A stretch of 64,000 nt of DNA from Arenicellales bacterium (GCA_965204695.1 OZ242007.1:451859-515858), one strand, 5' to 3'. Counted from the first letter of the stretch, positions 8,790 through 33,960 are shown. Notes: generated by a model from the letters alone, not told the origin. Numbers and translations: made by a program.

Positions 8790-9066
8790 TTTACATCTCC
8801 CAATGTCAAAAAAACTAACCCACGTAATGTGTTTGACACAATGGTGTGGCACTTTCCGCACCGCCATCGAGGCAGATGTCCCTGGTTTTATATCACTCCG
8901 TACAAACCTGAGCGGCGAGGCATTTGGCAGGTCTCCTGACTTACGATTTTAGTACGACTTAACCTTCCCGGTTTCCCAGTGGTATTTCAAAGTCACACAA
9001 TCGGTTACAGTTGCGGGGACAGTCACGGAATTACACCGTATTCCCTATTAATCTTACGAACCAAAT
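8790..9066 (-). promoter_or_regulatory. Cobalamin (AdoCbl) riboswitch leader of the btuB-like operon
   Basis: The minus strand reads GGTTCG..AATAGGGAATACGGTGTAATTCCGTGACTGTCCCCGCAACTGTAACCG...ATACCACTGGGAAACCGGGAAGG...AGTCAGGAGACCTGCC. The last stretch is the B12 box, at 8926-8940 on the plus strand. A GGGAGA Shine-Dalgarno lies just before the ATG at 8787. Confidence 0.9.
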
Positions 9067-9148
9067 GTGTGTGTAGAGTAACGAAATTATTGTTTATTTG
9101 CAATAATTCAGATGCTTTTTAATGGCTCTAAAACTAATGATAAAACAG

Positions 9149-9673
9149 CTATTTAGGCAATTCACCTTTGATAATCTGCGGTATACCGGCAACCATAAAC
9201 ACAACAGTCTCCACATGCTCGGCAAGCCGTTGATGTAAGCGACCAAGTTCGTCTACAAATTGCCTTGTTTCAGCACCCCTGGGAGTAATCCCCAGGCTAA
9301 TTTCATTAGATACCATGATGATTGGATTGGAAATCTTAGCTAGCATTTTTAAATAATCTTCTCTTTGCTCAATCCAGGTTTGTTCTGAATTATATAGACA
9401 ATTGTTTACCCAAAAACTCATACAATCTATCAAAACACAAGTCGAATCTAATTCAATTTGATTAAGTGAATTAGCTAAATGAATGGGTGATTCTATAGTT
9501 TGCCAATGTTGAGGTCGATCTTGTTGGTGTTTCTCAATACGAGTTTGCATCTCACCATCAACAGCCACTCCAGTAGCAATATATGTAACCTCAGGATAGT
9601 TAATGGCCAATGATTCAGCAAAGTTACTCTTGCCAGAACGCGCACCACCAAGAATTAATACAGAATGTAACAA
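9149..9673 (-). CDS. cobU: Bifunctional adenosylcobinamide kinase / adenosylcobinamide-phosphate guanylyltransferase
   Basis: The 174-aa protein has the P-loop 'GGARSGKS' and a CobU/CobP-like length and sequence. It appears to use a TTG start. Confidence 0.8.
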   Translation of the reverse strand: MLHSVLILGGARSGKSNFAESLAINYPEVTYIATGVAVDGEMQTRIEKHQQDRPQHWQTIESPIHLANSLNQIELDSTCVLIDCMSFWVNNCLYNSEQTWIEQREDYLKMLAKISNPIIMVSNEISLGITPRGAETRQFVDELGRLHQRLAEHVETVVFMVAGIPQIIKGELPK

Positions 9674-9887: not shown

Positions 9888-9963
9888 TGGCGTCCCCACG
9901 GGGATTCGAACCCCGGTTGCCGCCGTGAAAGGGCGGTGTCCTAGGCCTCTAGACGATGGGGAC
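9888..9963 (-). tRNA. tRNA-Glu (UUC)
   Basis: The reverse complement is GTCCCCATCGTCTAGAGGCCTAGGACACCGCCCTTTCACGGCGGCAACCGGGGTTCGAATCCCCGTGGGGACGCCA. This is nearly identical to enterobacterial tRNA-Glu, and the CCA is encoded. Confidence 0.95.
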
Positions 9964-10164: not shown

Positions 10165-10240
<76 letters not shown>

Positions 10241-11908: not shown

Positions 11909-13615
11909 ATGCAAAAAATTAAAGCCGCTCTTATCTTATTAACCCTTTCTTTTTTCTCGCTAACAAGTCTTTCGAGTTATTCACAGGAATTACCCTTTTC
12001 AGAAAGAGCGTTAAAAACGATCGAAGAAATTTCCGATTATAAAACACTGATTGGTCAGATTAACGCTGAAAAGAAGGACAAAATCGGTTATGAGGCCAGA
12101 GCGTTAAAAAAGCAACTTGCTGTTAATGAAGAGGCATACCGTAATCTTCTCTGGCAATTTTCTGATGACTTATTGCAACCTGAAAATATCAGCATCAAAA
12201 CTGAGCATCAGCAATTCATCATCTCGCTATTAGCGGATGAATCTACTGTTCTCAAACAGGAAATCGATCAGAATAGCCAAACTGTCGCTGGTCTTGAACA
12301 ACGAATCATTGATGCCAAAAAGAAAATCTTCACCACCAATCAGGCAATCAGTAAAGACAGGCTCGCCGACATTAAATGGCGGTTGTATCTGGAGCGTTTA
12401 AATCAGGAACAGCTTTATACCGCGCTGGTGAAAAATGCCTTGAGGTTGGACTTATTTGGTGAAAATGCCACTGATGACTTGAGCCTGGGAAAACTACTGG
12501 TTCAAAAACAGGCCGACATGCTGTCCGGCATGATTGGCGATACCAGAGACAAACTCATCAAGCTTGATAAACAGATTTCTGTGATCAGAAATGAATCCGA
12601 AACAGGCAAAAAAATCATTACCGATATCGCTTTAAAGAATGTAGATATTCAAAATTATGCTCGCCGATTGCAAAACATGGTTGGCCTGTTGACTGACATG
12701 AACGTGGATTCATCGTTATATAAGAAAACTATCATTCAATCACAAAATATTATCAGCACTGATATTTTCGACCGCAAAGTCGCATCTCACCTTTTCACCG
12801 AATGGTGGCTCAAAACTAAAAAATGGTTCAGCCAACAAGCCCCAACGATTCTTGGCAAAACAATAACTTTCATTAGTATATTGTTAATCGCCTGGTTCAT
12901 TGCGGCTATTGTAAAACGGATGGTTCGAGGTTTGTTCAAACGCACAAATCCTAATATGTCTGAGTTAGCTAAGAATTTCTTAATCGGCGTGTCTTCAAAA
13001 CTAATCATGCTAATCGGCTTTTTGATCGCTCTTTCAAATCTAGGTATTCAAATTGGACCTATTCTTGCTGGCCTTGGTATCATGGGTTTTATCATTGGTT
13101 TTGCGTTTCAGGAAACCTTGTCTAATTTTGCCTCAGGATTGATGATATTGATTTACCGCCCATACGATGTAGGTGACAAAATCCGAATTTCCGGCCTGGA
13201 AGGAAAAGTTAACAAAATGAATTTAGTCAGCACTACAATTTTTACTTCAGCCAATCACCACCTGACAATTCCGAATAATAAAATCTGGAAGGACATTATT
13301 CATAACATTACGTCACAACCGTTAGTGAGAATGGACTTGTTTTTTACAGCACCCTTTAATGCAGCTTCTGACACCGTGCTTGCCCTAATTCGGGACGAAG
13401 TTGAAAGCAACCCGATTGTTATTAAGGACAAGCCCAAGAATGTTCATATTCAAGAATTGGAAGAGGATGGCGTTAAATACATCGCCCGCTTCTGGATAAA
13501 TTCAGATGACATTGATGAAACCCGATGGGTCATCGCTGAAGGCGTTAAAAAGCGTTTTGACGCTAATGGGATTTCAGAGGAAATTATAGAGAGTTTAAAA
13601 GTAAGAATAGCTTAA
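11909..13615 (+). CDS. Mechanosensitive ion channel, MscS family, with a long N-terminal coiled-coil periplasmic domain
   Basis: A signal peptide is followed by about 300 aa of coiled-coil-like sequence, TM helices and the MscS core 'FAFQETLSNFASGLMILIYRPYDVGDKIRISGLEGKV'. Confidence 0.85.
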   Translation: MQKIKAALILLTLSFFSLTSLSSYSQELPFSERALKTIEEISDYKTLIGQINAEKKDKIGYEARALKKQLAVNEEAYRNLLWQFSDDLLQPENISIKTEHQQFIISLLADESTVLKQEIDQNSQTVAGLEQRIIDAKKKIFTTNQAISKDRLADIKWRLYLERLNQEQLYTALVKNALRLDLFGENATDDLSLGKLLVQKQADMLSGMIGDTRDKLIKLDKQISVIRNESETGKKIITDIALKNVDIQNYARRLQNMVGLLTDMNVDSSLYKKTIIQSQNIISTDIFDRKVASHLFTEWWLKTKKWFSQQAPTILGKTITFISILLIAWFIAAIVKRMVRGLFKRTNPNMSELAKNFLIGVSSKLIMLIGFLIALSNLGIQIGPILAGLGIMGFIIGFAFQETLSNFASGLMILIYRPYDVGDKIRISGLEGKVNKMNLVSTTIFTSANHHLTIPNNKIWKDIIHNITSQPLVRMDLFFTAPFNAASDTVLALIRDEVESNPIVIKDKPKNVHIQELEEDGVKYIARFWINSDDIDETRWVIAEGVKKRFDANGISEEIIESLKVRIA

Positions 13616-23099: not shown

Positions 23100-24002
23100 C
23101 TATCTAATTTGTTTGACAATCCAGTCCCTTACTTTTATTGCTTCTGGACTGAGACTTTTTTCCTTAGGCCAAACTAAATAAAACGCTTTACCAGTATCGA
23201 AACTGTCCGGCACAACCTTGATCAACAGACCTGCATCAATTAATCGATCAACAATATGCTGCCAACCAAACGCGATTCCTTGACCTTCCAGAGTTGCTTG
23301 TATGACCAAAGCATAATCATTTAAGCGTAGACCTTCACCTTTATCGTAGAAATCGACTCTATTGGCAGCAAACCAATCTTTCCAACTCGTGCGTGGACGA
23401 AATGGTTCATCGAGATGAATTAATCGATGTTTCATCAAATCCTCGAGTTTCTGTGGCCGATCACGTGTGTTGAAATAATCATTTTTAGCCACAGCAAATA
23501 TCTGTTCACGCGCCAGCTCCGCACAATCATATTCGCTCCAATCACCTTCACCGTGGCGAATACCTAATGAAATTGATTCATCAATTAAATTCACGTCTTT
23601 ATCACTGGTTTGTAAACGCAAATCAATCTCTGGGTGGGTTCTTCTGAAAGCCATCATACGTGGTAACAGCCAATAACTGGCAAATGCAGTTGAACTGGAA
23701 ATTGTCACATGATTTTCACTTGCTCTTTGTTTTATAAATTCGATCCCTCGTTGAACAAAAGTAAATCCGGTGGAAACCTCCTGGAAAAGGCGTTCTCCTT
23801 CATCAGTTAATAAGACTTTTCGATGTTGCCGATGAAATAGTGGAACACCTAAATATTGTTCTAGTTGCTTAATAAAATAACTCACTGAAGCTTGAGTCAT
23901 ACCCAACTCTTGCCCGGTCTTGGTAAAGTTTCCGATTCGTGCAGCCACGGTAAACACCAACAAAGAGTTGCTGATAGGCAATAATAATTTAAGATTATGC
24001 AT
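23100..24002 (-). CDS. LysR-family transcriptional regulator, divergent from the mttB-like gene
   Basis: The N-terminal HTH is 'FTKTGQELGMTQASVSYFIKQLEQYLGVPLFHR'. The size is 300 aa. Confidence 0.9.
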   Translation of the reverse strand: MHNLKLLLPISNSLLVFTVAARIGNFTKTGQELGMTQASVSYFIKQLEQYLGVPLFHRQHRKVLLTDEGERLFQEVSTGFTFVQRGIEFIKQRASENHVTISSSTAFASYWLLPRMMAFRRTHPEIDLRLQTSDKDVNLIDESISLGIRHGEGDWSEYDCAELAREQIFAVAKNDYFNTRDRPQKLEDLMKHRLIHLDEPFRPRTSWKDWFAANRVDFYDKGEGLRLNDYALVIQATLEGQGIAFGWQHIVDRLIDAGLLIKVVPDSFDTGKAFYLVWPKEKSLSPEAIKVRDWIVKQIR

Positions 24003-24106: not shown

Positions 24107-25621
24107 ATGAGTCGAACAGCACGTTCCCGTAGAGAAGCCAGGCAACGCGATGTTGTTAAGGCTCCAGCCTATATTCAAAGAAAAATCCCATTTTACGAAT
24201 TTTTGGGCGAGGAAGGGTTAGTTAAGCTGGAGGAGCAAGCAGATTGGTTGATACAAGAAATAGGCATGGAGTTTCGAGATGATCCTAAGGCTCTTGAGAT
24301 ATGGAAAGCTGGAGGCGCTGATGTAAATGGAACCCGAGTTAAACTTGAAAAAGGAATGGCACGTGAGTTATGCAAAACTATTCCGCAAAAATTTACTCAG
24401 CTCGCTCGCAATCCTGACAAAAGTGTTGAGATTGGCGGCACATCACAAGTGTTTGCCCCGGTCTATGGTCCCCCATTTGTTAGAGATTTAGAGGGCGGCA
24501 GGCGCTATGGAACCATAAAAGATCACGAGAACCTCGTCAAAATCGCTTATAGTCTGCCCAGCCTTCATCACACTGGTTTGGTCATCTGCGAACCCTGTGA
24601 CGTACCAGTTTCCAAACGCCATTTCGACATGGTTTACAACCACATGCGCTATAACGATAAACCTTTCCTCGGCGCAATCACTGAAAAATCTCGTGCTCAG
24701 GATTCGGTAGACATGGCCCGAGTGTTATTCGGTGAAGAAGTTCTGCAGAACAACTGCGTGATCATGGGTAACGTCAATACCAACTCGCCCTTGCTAATTG
24801 ATCGCGTGGTTACCGAAGCCGCCCAGGTTTACTGTGGAGCAAGTCAAGGCTTGATTGTTGCTCCATTTATTTTGGGTGGAGCAATGGGCCCTGTGACAAC
24901 ATCTGCTTCCATCGCTCAGGCATTGGCAGAAGCCATGATGGTTGGCGCATTTACACAACTAGTACGACCTGGTGCTCCCTTTATTTTAGGAAACTTCCTG
25001 TCGTCCATGAGTTTAAAAAGTGGTGCCCCAACCTTTGGCATGCCAGAACCGGTAATGTCGAATTTAGTAATTGGACAACTAGCCCGACGTTTAGGTGTGC
25101 CACTTCGTTGTGGGGGCTCCTTAACAGCATCTAAATTGCCCGATGCTCAGGCAGCAGCAGAAAGTGCTGACTCGATGCTTTCGACAGCTCTTGGTGGTGC
25201 AAACTTTGTTTTGCATTCTGCCGGTTGGCTCGAAGGCGGATTAGTGACCGGTTATGAAAAACTGGTTTTAGATGCAGACAGACTAGGCGCCTATCAGGTT
25301 ATGCTGTCAGGATTACCGATGGATGAGAATGCCATGGCACGTTCAGCATACTCTGAAGTCGAACCGGCTGGCCATTTCCTGGGCTGCAGCCATACTATGG
25401 GTAATTATCAAACTGCTTTCTATGATGCCAAACTCTCTGACAGCGAAAGTTGTGAACAATGGGAAGAAAATGGCTCCAAAGATTCAGCAAAGCGTGCCTA
25501 TGAACGTTGGAATCAAATTCTAGACGAGTATGAATTACCACCAATGGATGAAGCCAAAAACGAAGAATTATTAGAATTCATCGCTAAACGTAAAGCCGAA
25601 ATCCCGGATGCGTGGTATTAA
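24107..25621 (+). CDS. MttB-superfamily methyltransferase (trimethylamine methyltransferase family, non-pyrrolysine type)
   Basis: The 504-aa continuous ORF has an MttB-like sequence throughout and no in-frame TAG. Confidence 0.75.
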   Translation: MSRTARSRREARQRDVVKAPAYIQRKIPFYEFLGEEGLVKLEEQADWLIQEIGMEFRDDPKALEIWKAGGADVNGTRVKLEKGMARELCKTIPQKFTQLARNPDKSVEIGGTSQVFAPVYGPPFVRDLEGGRRYGTIKDHENLVKIAYSLPSLHHTGLVICEPCDVPVSKRHFDMVYNHMRYNDKPFLGAITEKSRAQDSVDMARVLFGEEVLQNNCVIMGNVNTNSPLLIDRVVTEAAQVYCGASQGLIVAPFILGGAMGPVTTSASIAQALAEAMMVGAFTQLVRPGAPFILGNFLSSMSLKSGAPTFGMPEPVMSNLVIGQLARRLGVPLRCGGSLTASKLPDAQAAAESADSMLSTALGGANFVLHSAGWLEGGLVTGYEKLVLDADRLGAYQVMLSGLPMDENAMARSAYSEVEPAGHFLGCSHTMGNYQTAFYDAKLSDSESCEQWEENGSKDSAKRAYERWNQILDEYELPPMDEAKNEELLEFIAKRKAEIPDAWY

Positions 25622-26527
25622 TCAATTATTGTCTAATTGATGAATCTTCTTCAGCCGGTAATCCAACTTCCCGGGAGTGATACCCAAATCCTTAGCTGCA
25701 TTTGATAATTGTCCTTTACCTTTATTCTCGGTCATGGCTTCTTCTAAGTATATTTTTTCTAATCCTTGCAGATGTTTCCAAAGCTCGGACTTATCATTCC
25801 CAGAGTATAGGAAAAATGACAGATCTCTTTTAGCCCGCCAGGACGGAGAAAAAGGCATAAAAATAGAATAATCTAGAATTTTATTATTATTAGTCGCATA
25901 AAAGCATCCGAACAGGAATATTGTGGTCGTTATTGGGAGCAATACAGCTGCATTAACATTTTTCCCAATTGCCATTAACAGAAGAACTATTAGTGTACCT
26001 AGAAACAAAGGAAATAATGAAATTAAAAGTACTGCGGCCTTTGCTCTTAGGTAAGAAAGCTTTTTGCGATCATAAACAGCTTGGATAATATAATAGATCG
26101 ATAAAATCAGACAAACTACTGCATATAACTGAAAAATATAGTAGTAATCTCCTGGGATACGGGTATATCCGATACCACCTTCTTTAAACCCAGCAATTAT
26201 AAGATCACTAATAAATAACAAGCTTGATTGCATGACACCAAACGCAAAAATTAGATCAGGCAGCTTTGTATCAAGTTTTGCTAATGCTTTAATCACGACT
26301 AGAATCATTGCCAAGACCAAAATCAAGAAAACATAAAAAAGTTTAAAACCGATAATAGAATGAAGCATTCCAGATAATCCCATAAACTCAATCAGACTCA
26401 ATGCAAATAAAAAAACAAGTAACCAAATAAAAGCAGTTCCTACATTCCTCTTGTCGATTATTAATTTTATGGCAAGGAATACCTTCAAAATAAGAGCAGC
26501 CAGTGAAAAAATACTATATGCAAACAT
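25622..26527 (-). CDS. Paralog A: 7-TM membrane protein with a C-terminal Fis-type helix-turn-helix
   Basis: About seven hydrophobic helices are visible. The conserved motifs are 'TRIPGDYYYIFQLYA' and 'FFLYSGND'. The C-terminus 'LEKIYLEEAMTENKGKGQLSNAAKDLGITPGKLDYRLKKIHQL' follows the NtrC/Fis HTH pattern. Confidence 0.6.
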   Translation of the reverse strand: MFAYSIFSLAALILKVFLAIKLIIDKRNVGTAFIWLLVFLFALSLIEFMGLSGMLHSIIGFKLFYVFLILVLAMILVVIKALAKLDTKLPDLIFAFGVMQSSLLFISDLIIAGFKEGGIGYTRIPGDYYYIFQLYAVVCLILSIYYIIQAVYDRKKLSYLRAKAAVLLISLFPLFLGTLIVLLLMAIGKNVNAAVLLPITTTIFLFGCFYATNNNKILDYSIFMPFSPSWRAKRDLSFFLYSGNDKSELWKHLQGLEKIYLEEAMTENKGKGQLSNAAKDLGITPGKLDYRLKKIHQLDNN

Positions 26528-26951
26528 TTAAATCCCTAATCTGAAAATTATTCCCTTCATTAAAATTAATTTACAACATTACTATTTCGTTATTTATTGT
26601 GAATATTAGACTTAATTCCATCATCTTGTTGGTAAGAATTATATCTGATGGACGGCATCAAATTTTATAGTTTTCTGATGTCCTGGATACAAATTTACCA
26701 AACATTTTATACCACAAGTAAAACTTCTAGCTAGCAAAGTTATTCCTACCTGGATATGTTGAGCTACAACTCAAATGAAATTGAAGCCAATGATTGTTCA
26801 CAAATTAGAAGAACGTGAAATTACTCAATCATAATGTATATGAAGCTGAACTAAATATTAGGTGAGTAAGACTTATCTTATAGGGATGAAGTAAAAATGT
26901 GAGTTTAAAAAAAGATATAGAAAGCTGAGACTTCAGATGCCTGGTATTAAT

Positions 26952-27863
26952 TTACTTAACATCTAATTGATGGATAGTCTTTAAACGGTAATCAAGTTTT
27001 CCTGGGGTATAACCAAGTGTTTTAGCTGCTTTTGTAATTTTACCCTTATTCTTTTTTAGAGCATCTTCAATATACAATTTTTCTAACTCCAACAATTTAT
27101 CCTGTAAGTTGATCTGATCATTTCCAGCATAAAGAAAAAATAATAACTTGTTCTTTTTACGCCACGATAGTGTTCCCGGAATCAGAATAGAAAAATCAAT
27201 AATCCTGCTATTTGAACAAGCGTATATACAGCCACCTAAGAAAATAGTTGTAGCAATCGGAACAATCACCACAGCATTAACTCTAAAACCTAAAGCCATC
27301 AAAAATATAATAATTAATACTGACATGAGCAACGGCATTAACGAAATTAAAATTATTGAAGAACGCGCCCTTATTACATTGTTCCTTTCACTCAAAGTAA
27401 AAGTTTTTTTACATATTATATAAATACAACTTATCAACTCACAAATTGCAAAAAGTTGGAACAAAAAATAAAAATCACCTGGAACACGAGTAATCGTGGA
27501 ATGTAATATCTCCACATCGGCAATTATTAAATCGCTAAAAAAAATTAATACAGCGATTGCAAGGCCGAGGCTATGAACAAAATTCAAGATAACTAAACTT
27601 ATCTTCGTAACTTGCAACACCAAAACAGTAAATAATATGAGTGAAAGTATTGCTAATACATAATAGATCTTAAGTGTTAAAAGGTTTTTACCAATAATTG
27701 TAAACGTTAAAAACTCAACAAAATTCAGTAAAAAAAGCGTCGTAAGCAAAATAAATAATACCTGCTTGAGATCATTCTTCTGCTTTCTAGCCACAAAAAA
27801 TAAAAAATAACACTTCGCTAACAAGGCAATCAGAGAAGGTATTGCGACCACTGTTAGTTGCAA
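26952..27863 (-). CDS. Paralog B: 7-TM membrane protein with a C-terminal Fis-type HTH, in an operon with the KAS III-like gene
   Basis: It aligns with paralog C along its full length. Its TTG start has a GGAGG 7 nt upstream and lies 17 nt after the KAS III-like stop. The C-terminus reads 'LEKLYIEDALKKNKGKITKAAKTLGYTPGKLDYRLKTIHQL'. Confidence 0.6.
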   Translation of the reverse strand: MQLTVVAIPSLIALLAKCYFLFFVARKQKNDLKQVLFILLTTLFLLNFVEFLTFTIIGKNLLTLKIYYVLAILSLILFTVLVLQVTKISLVILNFVHSLGLAIAVLIFFSDLIIADVEILHSTITRVPGDFYFLFQLFAICELISCIYIICKKTFTLSERNNVIRARSSIILISLMPLLMSVLIIIFLMALGFRVNAVVIVPIATTIFLGGCIYACSNSRIIDFSILIPGTLSWRKKNKLLFFLYAGNDQINLQDKLLELEKLYIEDALKKNKGKITKAAKTLGYTPGKLDYRLKTIHQLDVK

Positions 27864-27880
27864 TTCAGCACCTCCAGTTA

Positions 27881-28882
27881 CTACATATGTGACGACAATG
27901 CGATTTGAGATATGGACAGACCACTACCAGCTCCCATCAACAAGATATTCATTGATTTTATATTACTTATTTTTAATGTTCTACAAAAATTTACCGGCAT
28001 AGTTGCAGAAGCAATATTACCAAGTTTAGGGAAAGTTTTTGACATTCTGTTTTGATCAACTTTTGCCATTTCAGAGAATCTTTGATGTGGCCTTTTTCCA
28101 ACTTGATGTGTAATTAGAAAATCTGGTTTTTCCCAATCCAATTTCTTTAAAGTTTTTCTAAGTAAGCTTTTATGAGTTATAAGCATTCTCGCACATATTT
28201 TGTCCATGATCATCTGACCTGAAAATTCATTTTCTGGAAAATGATAGTGACATAACTTGTAACTTTGACTATCGGATTTCATTTCGAAATGGATGAACTT
28301 CAATCCTACTTCACTTGGATAAGAAGTGATTAACATTGCCCCAGCAGCATCGCCAATTGTTAGTGCACCAAACATACTTTGAAATTTACTATGGTCATGA
28401 TTAATCGAATTGATAGCTAACTTTGTAATATTTGAAGAAATCTCAGCTGTAACTAATAGTATTGAATCAAATCCCCTTTTTATAAACGAGTCAGCAACAA
28501 ACATACCATCTGAGAAACCATGACAAGCATTTGTTATATCAAAGCAAAACCCATTACTACCAATATTGGCCTGGACTATATGTGAAGTACCAGGTTCCAA
28601 GTAATCTCTTTCGATTCCACAATAAATTACACAATCAATTTCGCATGCATCGATGTTATTTTCATATAACAATTTCTCCGCAGCTTTTGATGCCATGAAT
28701 GAATGCTTATTTTCTCTAGAGTTAGCAAATCTTCTTTCAATTATTCCCATTCTTTCGTTAATGAAAGTCCGAGAAACACCAAAATTTGTCTCCGATTTTA
28801 GTTCATCCATTAAATCTTCAGATTTAACTATTTCTCCAGGGATAAATGCACTTGCCGCGTAAATATATGAATTAATTGACAT
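27881..28882 (-). CDS. Stand-alone 3-oxoacyl-ACP synthase III (FabH/KAS III)-family condensing enzyme
   Basis: The Cys-His-Asn triad contexts are 'ITNACHGF', 'ITHQVGKR' and 'LGNIASATMP'. I prefer the ATG at 28882 (GGAGG 8 nt upstream, product about 333 aa) over the TTG at 28984 given in the ORF track. Confidence 0.8.
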   Translation of the reverse strand: MSINSYIYAASAFIPGEIVKSEDLMDELKSETNFGVSRTFINERMGIIERRFANSRENKHSFMASKAAEKLLYENNIDACEIDCVIYCGIERDYLEPGTSHIVQANIGSNGFCFDITNACHGFSDGMFVADSFIKRGFDSILLVTAEISSNITKLAINSINHDHSKFQSMFGALTIGDAAGAMLITSYPSEVGLKFIHFEMKSDSQSYKLCHYHFPENEFSGQMIMDKICARMLITHKSLLRKTLKKLDWEKPDFLITHQVGKRPHQRFSEMAKVDQNRMSKTFPKLGNIASATMPVNFCRTLKISNIKSMNILLMGAGSGLSISQIALSSHM

Positions 28883-29002
28883 TTTAGTAACCTCCAATTT
28901 CAATATTAAATTTCTGTAATCAGAAACAATATCAAAAAAAATTTTTATTGCATCTGAAATTAGATGCTTTAAGTTGTTTTTCAATCTTGATGGCTAGGGG
29001 TT

Positions 29003-29067
29003 GGTGCGTTGCACCCTGGTGGGTACGCAGGTAGGTAAGATATCGCGTACCCACCTTATTTTCTTCT
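29003..29067 (+). terminator. GC-rich double hairpin with a plus-strand T-rich tail, located in the 5' leader region of the KAS III-like gene
   Basis: The first hairpin is GGTGC-GTT-GCACC (29003-29015). The second has GGTGGGTACGC (29018-28) pairing with GCGTACCCACC (29045-55) across a 16-nt loop, followed by TTATTTTCTTCT. No plus-strand gene ends here. Confidence 0.4.
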
Positions 29068-29358
29068 GTAGCTGGAATATTATTATGGCTACTTTGTATT
29101 TAGTTATTAACACCCTCTCTCTAAGTTGCTCATAATATTTACCTATAGGTTGTAGCAACCAGATAAATATACGACATGGATGTCAATGAGCAACTTTGTT
29201 TCCCCTGGTATACAAAGGCGCCACGGATAAAATCACTAACCCCAGTTTAAATTACCGGCAAATAAAGACTACTTAATATTGTGAGAGAAAATTAGGAATT
29301 TAGTAATTTTTTCCAGAAATAATCCAGAACACTTGGCTTTTGTTATTGATCATGGGTG

Positions 29359-29607
29359 TTAATCGTTATTGCTTAGAGCGAGTTGTACACTTTGAATATC
29401 ATCATGCGCTTTACTCTTTTTTACACTAATGATTTCGTTTTCATGCTCGGCAGTTAAATCTGGAAGCTCAGTTCCTTTTTTAAGATGAACAGATTTGATT
29501 TTTATGCGGTATTGACTACCTTCATCTTTTATTATTTCCCCTTTTATGAAGGTGTCTTTGAAAATCGTTAGTTCTGGTTTTGGAACAAAGACTTCTTTGT
29601 TGCTCAT
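29359..29607 (-). CDS. Hypothetical 82-aa soluble protein translationally coupled to paralog C
   Basis: An ATGA overlap with the stop of paralog C lies at 29604-29607. The protein is charged and lysine-rich, and I recognised no motif. Confidence 0.45.
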   Translation of the reverse strand: MSNKEVFVPKPELTIFKDTFIKGEIIKDEGSQYRIKIKSVHLKKGTELPDLTAEHENEIISVKKSKAHDDIQSVQLALSNND

Positions 29608-30545
29608 GACATTTCCTTGGATTTTGTTTTTGCCTTTTGGTTCTCGATCTTATGAATTGATTTAAGTCTATAATCAAGTTTTCCTGGTGTGTAACCCAAC
29701 GCATCCGCTGCCCTTGAAACTTTACCATTGTTCTGTTTAATTGCATCCTCGATATACTTTTTTTCCAAGTTCAAAAGCTGTGATTGAAGATTGATTTTGT
29801 TAGAGCCAGCATATAAAAAGAACATCATATCATGCCTGTTTTTCCATGAAACAGTCCCGGGTATTAGCATCGACAAATCAAAAACACGCTGATTCATACA
29901 AGCATAGATACATCCAGCCAGGAATATAGTCGTCATTATTGGGATAATGACTACAGCATTCATCTTATAACCTAGCGCCATAAAAATAATTATCGTAATC
30001 GCTGATATAACTAATGGTAAAAGCGAAACTAGGATAATGGATGATTTTGCCCGCATAAGCTGATTAGAAGTGCTGTGAGAAAATGTTGCTTTGACAATCC
30101 AGAATAAACAGACAAATAGTTCACTGATGGCGAAAAACTGAAATAAAAAATAAAAATCTCCAGGCACGCGGGTATAAGTATGATGAAGTCTTTTTATATC
30201 TACAATGATTAGATCAGTAAAAATTATTAGAAAAATTACTATAAGTCCAAGCGCATGTAGCAATAATACGTATCTTATTCTCTTGTTCAAAATCAAGGCT
30301 ACCAGATGAGTCGCCAGACCCAGAGAAATTATGACTGAAATAAAATAGAGAATAAATAGCCAAAGCTGATCACCTAATGGTGTGAATAGACAAAATTCAG
30401 TTAAATTCAAAAAACTCAAAGCGGTAACTAGTGCGATTAAAGTAGTATGCGCTACCTTTTGATGCTGCCGAAACACATAAAAAAGAAAATAACACTTAAT
30501 AAGCAAAGCAATCAGGGACGGTATTGATAATAGTGAAAATGACAT
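29604..30545 (-). CDS. Paralog C: 7-TM membrane protein with a C-terminal Fis-type HTH
   Basis: Conserved motifs 'TRVPGDFYFLFQFFA' and 'FFLYAGSN' are present. The C-terminus reads 'LEKKYIEDAIKQNNGKVSRAADALGYTPGKLDYRLKSIHKI'. Confidence 0.6.
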   Translation of the reverse strand: MSFSLLSIPSLIALLIKCYFLFYVFRQHQKVAHTTLIALVTALSFLNLTEFCLFTPLGDQLWLFILYFISVIISLGLATHLVALILNKRIRYVLLLHALGLIVIFLIIFTDLIIVDIKRLHHTYTRVPGDFYFLFQFFAISELFVCLFWIVKATFSHSTSNQLMRAKSSIILVSLLPLVISAITIIIFMALGYKMNAVVIIPIMTTIFLAGCIYACMNQRVFDLSMLIPGTVSWKNRHDMMFFLYAGSNKINLQSQLLNLEKKYIEDAIKQNNGKVSRAADALGYTPGKLDYRLKSIHKIENQKAKTKSKEMS

Positions 30546-30873
30546 ATTCTTTAAAACAACATCATACTATTCAATGGATAAGAATATTCATTATTGATTA
30601 GAGATTAGCTTTTTCTTTTATACCAGCACGAACAATAAAAACATCGTAACTATTTGTTTTTAAACAACTCCTGATTTCAGAAATAACTTTTTTCGTTATT
30701 CTGAATTCAAAATTTAACTTGAATTGCAAAAAATTAACGATATGATTAACGCTCTCTCGCCAAATGTAAGTCACTCGCTTACATAATTTAGGTGTGTCTG
30801 AATAGGCACACCTATTATTTACTTTACATCTAGGAATTCTGAAACAATCTATCCTCATTTTAACCACTATTTT

Positions 30874-33057: not shown

Positions 33058-33960
33058 ATGGATAAGTTCAAATCTATGACGATTTTTCTCAAAATTGTCG
33101 ATGCAGGTAACTTTACTGAAGCTGCGAAACAATTAAAAGTGCCCTTGGCCAGCGTAAGTTATCACATGAGCAAACTGGAAGAATCTCTTGGTATTCGCTT
33201 ACTAAATCGAACTACCCGTAAAGTTTCACTAACAGATTTAGGGCGCAATTATGCTGAACGTTGCAGATACATACTGGCGGAAGTTGAGGAAACTGAAAAC
33301 ACCTTAAATCAACTGCATAACGAACCAGAAGGCACTTTGAATCTCAATGCTCCGACCTCTTTTGGTACGCTATTTCTGTCAGATTTTATTAGTGAATTCA
33401 TACAACGCTACCCCGGAGTCAAAATCAATTTAACTCTTACCGATAAATTGGTTAATGTCATGGAAGAAGGTGCCGATATTGTTATACGAATATCCAAACC
33501 ATCAGACTCAAGTCTATTGATGCGTAAACTGGCACCCATAAATATTATCTTTTGTGCTAGTCCTGAGTATTTACAACGCCATGGTGAACCTAAAAAACTT
33601 TCTGATTTAACTAAGCACAATTGTCTTAAATATAGTTACTATCAAAGCCAACGCTGGCAGGCAGCGGGACCATATGGCCTTGAAAAAATAAAAACCTCTG
33701 GCAGTTTGCAATCCAATAATGATGAAATACTTAAGATCAGTGCCTGTGCTGGACATGGAATCATCTATATTCCGTCCTATATTGTTTATGAGGAATTACA
33801 ATCAGGCCGCCTAAAACAAATCCTAGTTGACTATCATGAACCAGGCTATTTTATCTACGCACTTTATCCACCTTCACGTAGATTGTCCGCAAAAACTCGT
33901 GTGTTCCTGGACTTTCTAGTGGAAAAGTTTCAAAACACGCCCTATTGGGCTATACATTAA
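33058..33960 (+). CDS. LysR-family transcriptional regulator
   Basis: The N-terminal HTH is 'FTEAAKQLKVPLASVSYHMSKLEESLGIRLLNR'. Confidence 0.9.
   Translation: MDKFKSMTIFLKIVDAGNFTEAAKQLKVPLASVSYHMSKLEESLGIRLLNRTTRKVSLTDLGRNYAERCRYILAEVEETENTLNQLHNEPEGTLNLNAPTSFGTLFLSDFISEFIQRYPGVKINLTLTDKLVNVMEEGADIVIRISKPSDSSLLMRKLAPINIIFCASPEYLQRHGEPKKLSDLTKHNCLKYSYYQSQRWQAAGPYGLEKIKTSGSLQSNNDEILKISACAGHGIIYIPSYIVYEELQSGRLKQILVDYHEPGYFIYALYPPSRRLSAKTRVFLDFLVEKFQNTPYWAIH

Follow-up and report, generated by a model that had tools for sequence, protein, structure and literature searches.

A conserved pair of an OleA/PpyS-like thiolase and a seven-helix membrane protein with a Fis-type DNA-binding tail: a candidate signal synthase–receptor cassette

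Why would a condensing enzyme of the KAS III fold be encoded among paralogous membrane proteins that end in a DNA-binding motif? The question is posed by an AT-rich island of five minus-strand genes (positions 25622–30545) in a 64,000-nt stretch of an Arenicellales bacterium genome (GCA_965204695.1 OZ242007.1:451859-515858), hereafter the window. The original prediction held that the enzyme makes a hydrophobic small molecule which seven-transmembrane (7TM) domains sense within the membrane, with their cytoplasmic helix-turn-helix (HTH) tails acting directly on DNA. Of this interpretation, an enzyme other than housekeeping FabH, its linkage to the membrane proteins, a non-transporter fold and an HTH_8 tail all stand, while product sensing, in-membrane sensing and DNA binding are what we continue to infer. 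On balance, and with moderate confidence, we favour reading the locus as a synthase plus a membrane-embedded one-component receptor-regulator, a cassette of an undescribed type that is accompanied by extra ‘solo’ receptors.

The core of the island is formed by an OleA/PpyS-like thiolase gene (27881–28882, minus strand; 333 aa from its ATG), predicted to encode a head-to-head Claisen condensing enzyme, and paralog B (26952–27863, minus strand; 303 aa, TTG start, 7TM plus HTH_8), which occupies the conserved partner position of the cassette. As originally described, 17 nt separate the enzyme stop from the start of B, and GGAGG lies 7 nt upstream of the TTG. B has its own ribosome-binding site (RBS), and no terminator separates the two genes; given the 17-nt gap, enzyme and B are probably translationally coupled.

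The reading rests first on gene linkage. Scanning metagenomes with an alignment of the thiolase clade yielded 80 loci (loci carry L-numbers throughout), the six-frame open reading frames (ORFs) of which were scored with both family profiles; thiolases of at least 307 bits, as well as frameshifted clade copies, were assigned to the clade, with sister thiolases scoring at most 259 bits. L001 and L007 were counted as one locus, and two further contigs end too early to judge. In all 25 clade loci with downstream DNA, a 7TM-HTH_8 ORF follows the thiolase immediately downstream on the same strand, at a distance of 6–513 nt, whereas none of the ~56 sister thiolases that served as a control, also with Glu-Cys-His-Asn, has such a neighbour. 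The 25 loci represent 11 neighbourhood groups in hosts of 40–66% G+C, and the co-occurrence of the two genes across genomes, on which the original prediction depended, is thereby borne out as counted from the thiolase side. The pairing holds at thiolase identities down to 33% and receptor identities of ~20%; relatives at 43–44% thiolase identity have the 7TM-HTH_8 gene directly downstream in neighbourhoods unlike that of the window (psp operon/purL in L010 and L011, Ldh_2/DUF3179 in L009). The enzyme partners include short, medium and long receptor forms, and several receptor paralogs stand beside one enzyme in the window, L021, L025 and L026/27. No third conserved gene surrounds the pair in the 25 loci: the candidates, families shared between groups, were rejected as mostly shadow ORFs antisense to the two genes.

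Base composition also sets the unit apart. The enzyme-receptor module is AT-richer than its flanks in 21/21 loci, by 1–11 percentage points (for example L022 5001–6977 and L025 3231–7760), which suggests horizontal spread or a compositional constraint. The AT-richness noted earlier for the window island is confirmed, with a G+C content of 0.331 for 25622–30545 versus 0.412 for the rest of the window. Two annotation matters touch these loci. The 7TM gene of L009 (8990–9904) had been called short, with homology starting at 9041 and the called ATG at 9194. The thiolases of L023 (1179–2180), L031 (1145–2183) and L036 (4974–5991) are split over frames, being either pseudogenes or the product of sequencing errors, and each is followed by an intact receptor gene.

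Which kind of condensing enzyme is this? Both Pfam ACP_syn_III and ACP_syn_III_C are present, and the enzyme falls below the cutoff of every NCBIfam FabH model, the curated ones included (TIGR00747, 119.6 bits with a cutoff of 292.1; NF006829, 135.8 bits with a cutoff of 249). The best NCBIfam model, NF006720 (PRK09258), which we take to cover OleA-type proteins, is not passed either (162.7 bits, cutoff 285). The top relatives of solved structure are the Xanthomonas OleA entries 3ROW, 3S21, 4KTI, 5VXF and others, with CorB and MxnB also among the PDB matches. As judged by single-sequence search, the enzyme is nearest to OleA (E 1.6e-25, versus 1.8e-10 for Escherichia coli FabH; identity to OleA ~26%), and the clade profile likewise scores OleA at 201.7 bits and the best FabH at 186.8.

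The catalytic residues point the same way. The HMMER alignment to 3ROW places ERDYLEPGTS of the query on SRDYLEPST of OleA, and residue counting equates E96 with Glu117 and C120 with Cys143; a separate alignment (A8) confirms the E96–Glu117 column, and the 5VXF chain has Gln at this OleA position. Glu96, Cys120, His259 and Asn289 are invariant in 24 clade members. While C120, H259 and N289 align to C112, H244 and N274 of FabH, the Cys-His-Asn triad is common to the whole superfamily and is therefore non-discriminating; it is in the Glu96 column, a position of the cross-subunit pocket that is hydrophobic in housekeeping FabH, that E. coli FabH (sequence checked against 1HN9) has Phe87, and an insertion common to the clade and OleA is missing in FabH. 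Housekeeping FabH also condenses decarboxylatively, with malonyl-ACP. Through OleA Glu117, the homology extends to PpyS, with its E105 and triad. The roles of OleA Glu117 and PpyS Glu105 in catalysis have been described (PMC4578411), and the keto-acid products of OleA are known to decarboxylate to ketones (PMC7064751). Finally, the neighbours of the enzyme are 7TM-HTH genes, mttB and queF rather than a fab cluster (plsX-fabH-fabD-fabG-acpP). Sub-cutoff scores, Glu in place of Phe87 and the lack of a fab context led us to reject a housekeeping FabH, in agreement with the original prediction; its label ‘FabH-like’ is right as to the KAS III fold and is more exactly replaced by OleA/PpyS-like head-to-head thiolase. 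By its sequence, the enzyme is an OleA/PpyS-type thiolase with Cys-His-Asn and the cross-subunit Glu base, which in OleA comes from the partner subunit.

Its membrane-protein partners are three in the window. Besides B these are paralog A (25622–26527, minus strand; 301 aa) and paralog C (29604–30545, minus strand; 313 aa), both of 7TM plus HTH_8 architecture. With C as query, B is 54% identical (E 3e-96) and A 37% identical (E 2e-52), which makes the three true paralogs, as proposed; the motifs TR[IV]PGD[FY]Y[FY][IL]FQ, FFLY[AS]G and G[IY]TPGKLDYRLK on which the proposal had drawn are present. The Fis-type HTH is equally real: all three pass Pfam HTH_8 (PF02954, cutoff 22 bits), A with 22.6, B with 35.2 and C with 34.2 bits. 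In A, called as an ORF and by profile matches, the motif spans residues 256–294, and the protein scores 287 bits to the family profile over positions 1–300; its orthologues adjoin mttB in L002, L005 and L006. The HTH_8 tail is the best-conserved part of the Arenicellales-type paralogs, with GKLDYRLK invariant.

The N-terminal region is related to the sensor domain HisKA_7TM (PF16927, cutoff 28.6 bits), albeit at a distance in the window itself: C reaches 17.7 bits over profile positions 3–222 of 224, and A and B give no match. Partners at the same cassette position elsewhere pass, with 42.5, 38.5, 46.7, 46.8 and 43.0 bits; they can be aligned with A, B and C over the full length and score 177–222 bits to the profile built on A3. 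A long form retrieved by the A2 profile of window-type paralogs, P0075, passes as well, with 34.1 bits. In the literature found, HisKA_7TM is listed as a sensor domain of histidine kinases, with no ligand named (PMC5847659).

The AlphaFold2 model of C (pLDDT 77.7, pTM 0.68) comprises seven transmembrane (TM) helices (residues 5–217), a linker of ~35 residues and a three-helix C-terminal domain. When compared with the PDB by Foldseek, it gave only weak matches to 7TM G-protein-coupled receptor (GPCR)/rhodopsin structures (best E 0.014), with no transporter fold among the 50 matches listed. A transporter identity for the N-terminal domain, which would have undermined the original prediction, is rejected on these listed matches: the relation to HisKA_7TM and the weak GPCR/rhodopsin-type matches both lead elsewhere. 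Counts of lysine plus arginine (K+R) among 41 family members are 2.1, 1.9, 3.5 and 3.7 for the odd loops and the segment that follows TM7, compared with 0, 0.5, 1.3 and 0.5 for the N-terminus and the even loops. Because of this excess, the topology is predicted to be N-out and C-in, which would leave the HTH in the cytoplasm. The family-conserved residues N47, E50, Y67, Y68, G116, T125, G129, Y132, Q136, M189, G192 and N196 are all located in the periplasmic half of the bundle.

How widespread is this architecture? In a word-indexed protein search, no more than nine close relatives came to light, including three from this genome; those with an organism label come from metagenome-assembled genomes (MAGs) of Arenicellales bacterium and Gammaproteobacteria bacterium. 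An exhaustive profile search, by contrast, found 558 representatives at E ≤ 1e-3 (448 at E ≤ 1e-10), so that what had appeared to be a peculiarity of the island belongs to a sizeable uncharacterised family. Its largest size class, ~300 aa, consists of 7TM plus HTH_8 across the whole profile. Proteins of ~430–600 aa have a middle region without assignment, and those of ~765–877 aa a partial sigma-54 AAA+/lid segment matching ZraR, NifA, NtrC and PspF; medium forms match Fis, and HTH_8 scores reach 64 bits in the longer forms. Where the host is of high GC content, longer receptors accompany the thiolase (L033 6369–8924; L024 1098–2654; L025 6159–7760; L026 1318–2880 and 2920–4473), of which those of ~520 aa have an unassigned 230-aa middle region, while in the 852-aa form the sigma-54 AAA+ domain is reduced to its back half plus lid. 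The longer receptors thus look like a graded series of motor loss, and, since the long forms keep part of the AAA+/lid segment, the ~300-aa form probably derives from a membrane-bound NtrC-type activator by loss of the AAA+ domain.

The literature search found no description of a 7TM plus HTH_8 protein or of its pairing with a thiolase, consistent with the original view that the gene combination is not a described system. The plasmid database PLSDB contained no 7TM-HTH homologue and, with the thiolase as query, only distant actinomycete KAS III matches; exact look-up of P0012 and P0014 matched no contigs.

Directly upstream of the enzyme gene lies a conserved structured non-coding element of 190 nt (28883–29072, minus strand). 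Compared with L006, 29072–28883 is 86–98% identical at the DNA level, as against 52–75% for the coding sequence and 59% for the proteins: the leader is better conserved than the enzyme coding sequence. From its 5′ end the element contains hairpin P1 (29018–29055, 10–11-bp stems), a small GGTGC/GCACC hairpin (29003–29015), hairpin P2 (28950–28967) followed by an A/T run, the palindrome TTCTG-N4-CAGAA (28912–28925) within the 19-nt spacer between TTGATA and TTTAAT hexamers, and the RBS GGAGG (28891–28895), all on the minus strand. P1 is the GC-rich hairpin noticed originally, with 11-bp stems. The gap that holds it was given as 374 bp, a figure that assumes a TTG start at 28984 and does not stand; homologues and the GGAGG 8 nt upstream favour ATG 28882, and the gap is therefore 476 bp (28883–29358), as the coordinates given elsewhere in the same prediction imply. 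The rest of the gap (29073–29358, minus strand) is weakly conserved, with a sigma-70-like match TTAATA-17-CATAAT at 29110–29082.

The predicted RNA fold of the element has an energy of −51.1 kcal/mol (z = −5.6). Further copies are located in L001 (6795–6982), L006 (6649–6832), L005 (1069–1300), L004 (6846–7065), L002 (10749–10935), L003 (5895–6088) and L009 (15708–15940). In three loci (the window, L001 and L006) the element is the upstream region of the enzyme gene; in L002/L003, L004 and L005, RBS-less copies lie 540–950 nt upstream of solo receptor genes, and the L009 copy is 6 kb from the pair. Compensatory GC/AU changes between copies affect 4 of the 10 P1 pairs, with L009 adding a fifth variant, and argue that the pairing is under selection; as there are no G-U pairs, an RNA helix and a DNA inverted repeat look alike in these data. 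The leader matches no Rfam family, whether the gathering score or E up to 1 is applied, and neither other clades nor the rest of the window yielded copies when scanned with a covariance model of the 5′ half of the element. The element might serve as a small RNA, as a leader or as an operator platform.

The palindrome TTCTG-N4-CAGAA occurs twice in the window versus 0.08 expected, and is also found in the elements of L005, L006 and L009. The second exact copy (12577–12590, TTCTGTGATCAGAA) lies inside an MscS-like gene (11909–13615) and is identical to the enzyme-upstream one at 15 of 16 positions over the 16-nt TTTC...GAAA; it is probably due to chance, although it could be a second binding site. 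In other clades, 7 of 21 loci, from 4 of 11 groups, have a TTCA-N4/6-TGAA palindrome (a motif picked post hoc) 80–175 nt ahead of the thiolase gene, versus 0.5 expected from shuffles. A sigma-54 promoter upstream of the enzyme gene was considered for the L017, L020 and L022 leaders and rejected, the GG-N10-GC spacing being unfit by eye.

Receptor genes also occur apart from the enzyme. Among relatives of the window organism the queF–mttB site is variable: L001 has an A-type gene, the enzyme and a B-type gene; L006 has the enzyme and two receptor genes; in L002/L003, a gap of 2.5 kb devoid of ORFs accompanies two receptor genes; and L005 has one receptor gene, while L004 has a solo receptor at another site. 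Since tblastn revealed no decayed thiolase in the gaps of L002, L004 and L005 (best E 1.6), these are true solo receptor loci, resembling LuxR solos in that receptor genes are present without a local synthase. Paralog A of the window is likely such an extra ‘solo’-type receptor. We also observed that solo 7TM-HTH genes lie directly downstream of a gene for an AMP-binding (acyl-activating) enzyme in L004 (3929–6265), L005 (2–553) and the P0006 locus. This is a further neighbour from lipid metabolism, but the adjacencies do not constitute independent evidence because the loci are orthologous; L004 additionally holds a PlsC-type acyltransferase gene.

How might such a cassette work? In the mechanism we propose, the thiolase would join two acyl thioesters head to head without decarboxylation, yielding a lipophilic product, either a 2-alkyl-3-keto acid that can decay to a ketone or a pyrone-type lactone. 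This product would partition into the membrane or leave the cell, and the 7TM domain would bind it from the outer leaflet or the periplasm, in the outer half of the bundle. Binding of the ligand may shift the geometry of a receptor dimer and so reorient the membrane-tethered HTH dimer, which would bind palindromic DNA near its own locus, the candidate site being the TTCTG-N4-CAGAA in the spacer of a promoter-like sequence shortly before the thiolase gene. Switching the operon of enzyme and receptor, along with other targets, in this way would result in autoinduction. A and C would act as additional receptors comparable to LuxR solos, perhaps for other chain lengths or for the signals of neighbours. 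More broadly, and tentatively, at slightly less than even confidence, the cassette may be the first recognised example of a widespread form of cell–cell or cell–environment signalling: a thiolase-made keto-lipid or pyrone autoinducer would be read in the outer leaflet by a seven-helix, GPCR-like receptor that doubles as the transcription factor and acts directly on DNA, without kinase, second messenger or partner, with the paralogs as eavesdropping ‘solos’ and the lineage-specific structured RNA/operator element as the immediate target.

Several points weigh against the synthase–receptor reading. That an enzyme and a regulator are conserved as a pair is in itself no proof that the product is what the regulator senses, and the occurrence of 7TM-HTH genes without a thiolase (L002/L003, L004, L005) implies that the receptor can work without a local synthase. 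The window paralogs are under the HisKA_7TM cutoff, and OleA is only modestly ahead of the best FabH structures (201.7 versus 186.8 bits). The palindrome motifs were defined after inspection of the data, and it may be as RNA, not as an operator, that the leader works. The product, the ligand, DNA binding and the regulon are all things that we infer.

Which other explanations could account for the pair? The one that survives best, though we judge it unlikely by comparison, is that the 7TM-HTH protein senses a membrane property or an external cue (fluidity, temperature, a host or environmental lipid) and induces the thiolase, whose long-chain keto acid, ketone or hydrocarbon-type product modifies the cell’s own envelope with no cell–cell signalling. 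Strict pairing would be expected just as much of any other enzyme and its regulator; known OleA-type systems yield membrane lipids (PMC7064751); the receptor genes occur without the thiolase; and histidine kinases use HisKA_7TM as a general-purpose sensor domain (PMC5847659). What speaks against this explanation is that neither OleBCD-type processing genes nor a third conserved gene accompany the pair, that the conserved receptor residues are on the periplasmic side, and that the presence of diverged receptor paralogs per enzyme (window, L021, L025, L026) fits ligand diversification better than a single physical cue.

We consider it improbable that the locus is a minimal secondary-metabolite locus, in which the thiolase would make a bioactive pyrone or β-keto lipid (an antimicrobial or toxin) and the 7TM-HTH protein would serve as pathway regulator or immunity sensor. 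Pyrone-forming ketosynthases of the superfamily, namely PpyS, PyrS, MxnB and CorB, do make bioactive compounds (PMC4578411), and the AT-richer module in 21/21 loci suggests mobility; yet the conserved unit has no exporter, resistance, tailoring or carrier-protein gene, and PADLOC reported no defence-system match for any protein. A defence island was rejected as a separate candidate: in PADLOC, only the HTH ends of B and C fell on one RtcR/PspF-like regulator model (E ~1e-4).

Less probable still, and to our mind very doubtful, is a view in which the 7TM protein chiefly assists the enzyme at the membrane, by accepting, flipping or exporting its hydrophobic product, and in which the HTH-like tail is structural or vestigial. 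Such a role would be compatible with the probable translational coupling across the 17-nt gap and with a 7TM fold that has no close solved relative. However, no stretch of the Arenicellales-type paralogs is better conserved than this tail, its score rises to as much as 64 bits in longer forms, the long forms keep NtrC/ZraR-type AAA+-lid and HTH segments, and the 7TM region is related to a known sensor domain, with no transporter among the listed fold matches. Lastly, that the two genes adjoin by accident in one lineage, within a hypervariable AT-rich island and to no functional end, as variable island content between relatives and rearrangement scars might suggest, is hardly credible and effectively refuted by the presence of the pair in 25/25 clade loci, maintained in 11 unrelated neighbourhoods at 20–40% protein identity and in hosts of 40–66% G+C.

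The remainder of the island completes the picture. The five-gene block is flanked by an MTTB-family gene ending at 25621 on one side and a lipoprotein/queF block on the other, and ORF calling reproduced the coordinates of all five minus-strand ORFs as originally given. A Pfam scan of the locus proteins upheld the claim that kinase, receiver and AAA+ domains are absent. Paralog C is followed by an ORF for an 82-aa soluble protein (29359–29607, minus strand), which overlaps the stop of C through the ATGA sequence described before. No significant family was found for it in Pfam, NCBIfam or PADLOC searches; its sole homologue, an 83-aa ORF of 59% identity (L001 5335–5586, from an Arenicellales MAG; genome copy L007), precedes the A-type gene there, and the ORF is outside the conserved cassette. 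The region upstream of C (30546–30873, minus strand; G+C 0.28) contains sigma-70-like matches and a hairpin (30789–30814).

The B–A intergenic region (26528–26951, minus strand; G+C 0.29) is 424 bp long, as first counted, and records a rearrangement. Its end, 26921–26951, is 77% identical to 25592–25622 (repeat D7); the repeated 31 nt are the end of mttB (...IPDAWY plus stop), so that a relic copy of the mttB 3′ end stands directly after the stop of B. Paralog B probably once abutted mttB, as it does in L001, and A with its 424-nt spacer was probably inserted or recombined in later together with an mttB tail; the island is undergoing reshuffling. Elsewhere in the window we noted a cobalamin riboswitch (8909–9080, minus strand, 114.6 bits) and two tRNA genes (9891–9963 and 10168–10240, both on the minus strand), all unrelated to the cassette. 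Genes for LysR-family regulators stand on both sides of the wider region (23100–24002, minus strand; 33058–33960, plus strand) and recur in the syntenic L001, L002 and L006; no evidence was found for their membership of the cassette.

If the synthase–receptor reading is right, bacterial chemical signalling would gain a new class of receptor, in which seven membrane helices are joined directly to a DNA-binding domain, and with it about the shortest possible route from a membrane ligand to a promoter. The locus would likewise define a new class of signal synthases drawn from OleA-type thiolases and provide the first ligand context known to us for the HisKA_7TM sensor domain. The series of receptor forms would also illustrate how NtrC-type activators can lose the AAA+ motor and turn into simple membrane-tethered regulators. 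As the cassette has just two genes and is found in hosts of 40–66% G+C, it should be easy to test heterologously and might serve as a compact lipid-responsive switch. Even if the product does no more than modify the envelope, the strictly conserved pair would be an unstudied membrane-lipid circuit.

How does the cassette compare with known systems? In PpyS/PluR of Photorhabdus, a KAS III-derived ketosynthase with the catalytic Glu E105 condenses two acyl units head to head to yield a lipophilic signal for a dedicated transcription factor (PMC4578411). The likeness, which extends to DarB/PauR dialkylresorcinol signalling, lies in the combination of a ketosynthase-made signal with a dedicated transcription factor, and the same Glu and triad are present here. 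PluR, however, is a soluble LuxR-type solo with PAS4, whereas the partner in the cassette is a seven-helix membrane protein with a Fis-type HTH, and the product is only predicted. OleA of the OleABCD olefin/β-lactone pathway (Xanthomonas campestris; 3ROW, 4KU5, 5VXF), which condenses two long-chain acyl-CoAs non-decarboxylatively to a 2-alkyl-3-keto acid, is the best solved relative, sharing Cys143, His285, Asn315, Glu117 and the insertion; the difference is that neither the conserved unit nor the window island contains oleB, oleC or oleD, and that the partner is a regulator rather than a processing enzyme. The enzyme thus fits OleA by its catalytic residues, and not by genomic context (no oleBCD) or model cutoff. 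In the α-hydroxyketone quorum sensing systems CqsA/CqsS of Vibrio and LqsA/LqsS of Legionella, a PLP-dependent synthase is coupled to a six-TM histidine kinase and a phosphorelay to LuxO (AAA+ plus HTH_8). These systems have in common with the cassette, as predicted here, a lipophilic ketone-type signal derived from acyl thioesters and a polytopic membrane sensor encoded beside its synthase; in the cassette, one protein leads from membrane to DNA, with no kinase or receiver and no PLP-dependent synthase.

Membrane-anchored one-component DNA-binding regulators are known as well: ToxR, TcpP, CadC, TfoS and ChiS often act on adjacent genes (PMC11856585, PMC7888679). These have one or a few TM helices, a periplasmic sensor and an OmpR-type winged-helix or AraC-type domain (N-terminal and cytoplasmic in ToxR), whereas here the seven-helix bundle would be the sensor itself and the C-terminal Fis-type HTH the output; no domains are shared. 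The C-terminal HTH_8 module is the same as in Fis and in the NtrC-class enhancer-binding proteins, and the long relatives (~850 aa) keep the back half of the ZraR/NifA/NtrC/PspF AAA+ domain plus lid. Being devoid of an AAA+ domain, a receiver and a GAFTGA loop, the window proteins cannot act through sigma-54 in the canonical way. Their N-terminal seven-helix region is related to the sensor domain of HisKA_7TM kinases, clearly so in partner proteins of other loci, which pass the profile cutoff, and more distantly in the divergent window copies; the output is DNA-binding rather than a kinase. With a receptor that is neither of the LuxR type nor a kinase, the cassette is a member of neither the PpyS/PluR–DarB/PauR nor the CqsA/CqsS group, the two that it would most resemble in operation: its receptor architecture is undescribed, within a kind of system, the synthase–receptor signalling pair, that is already known.

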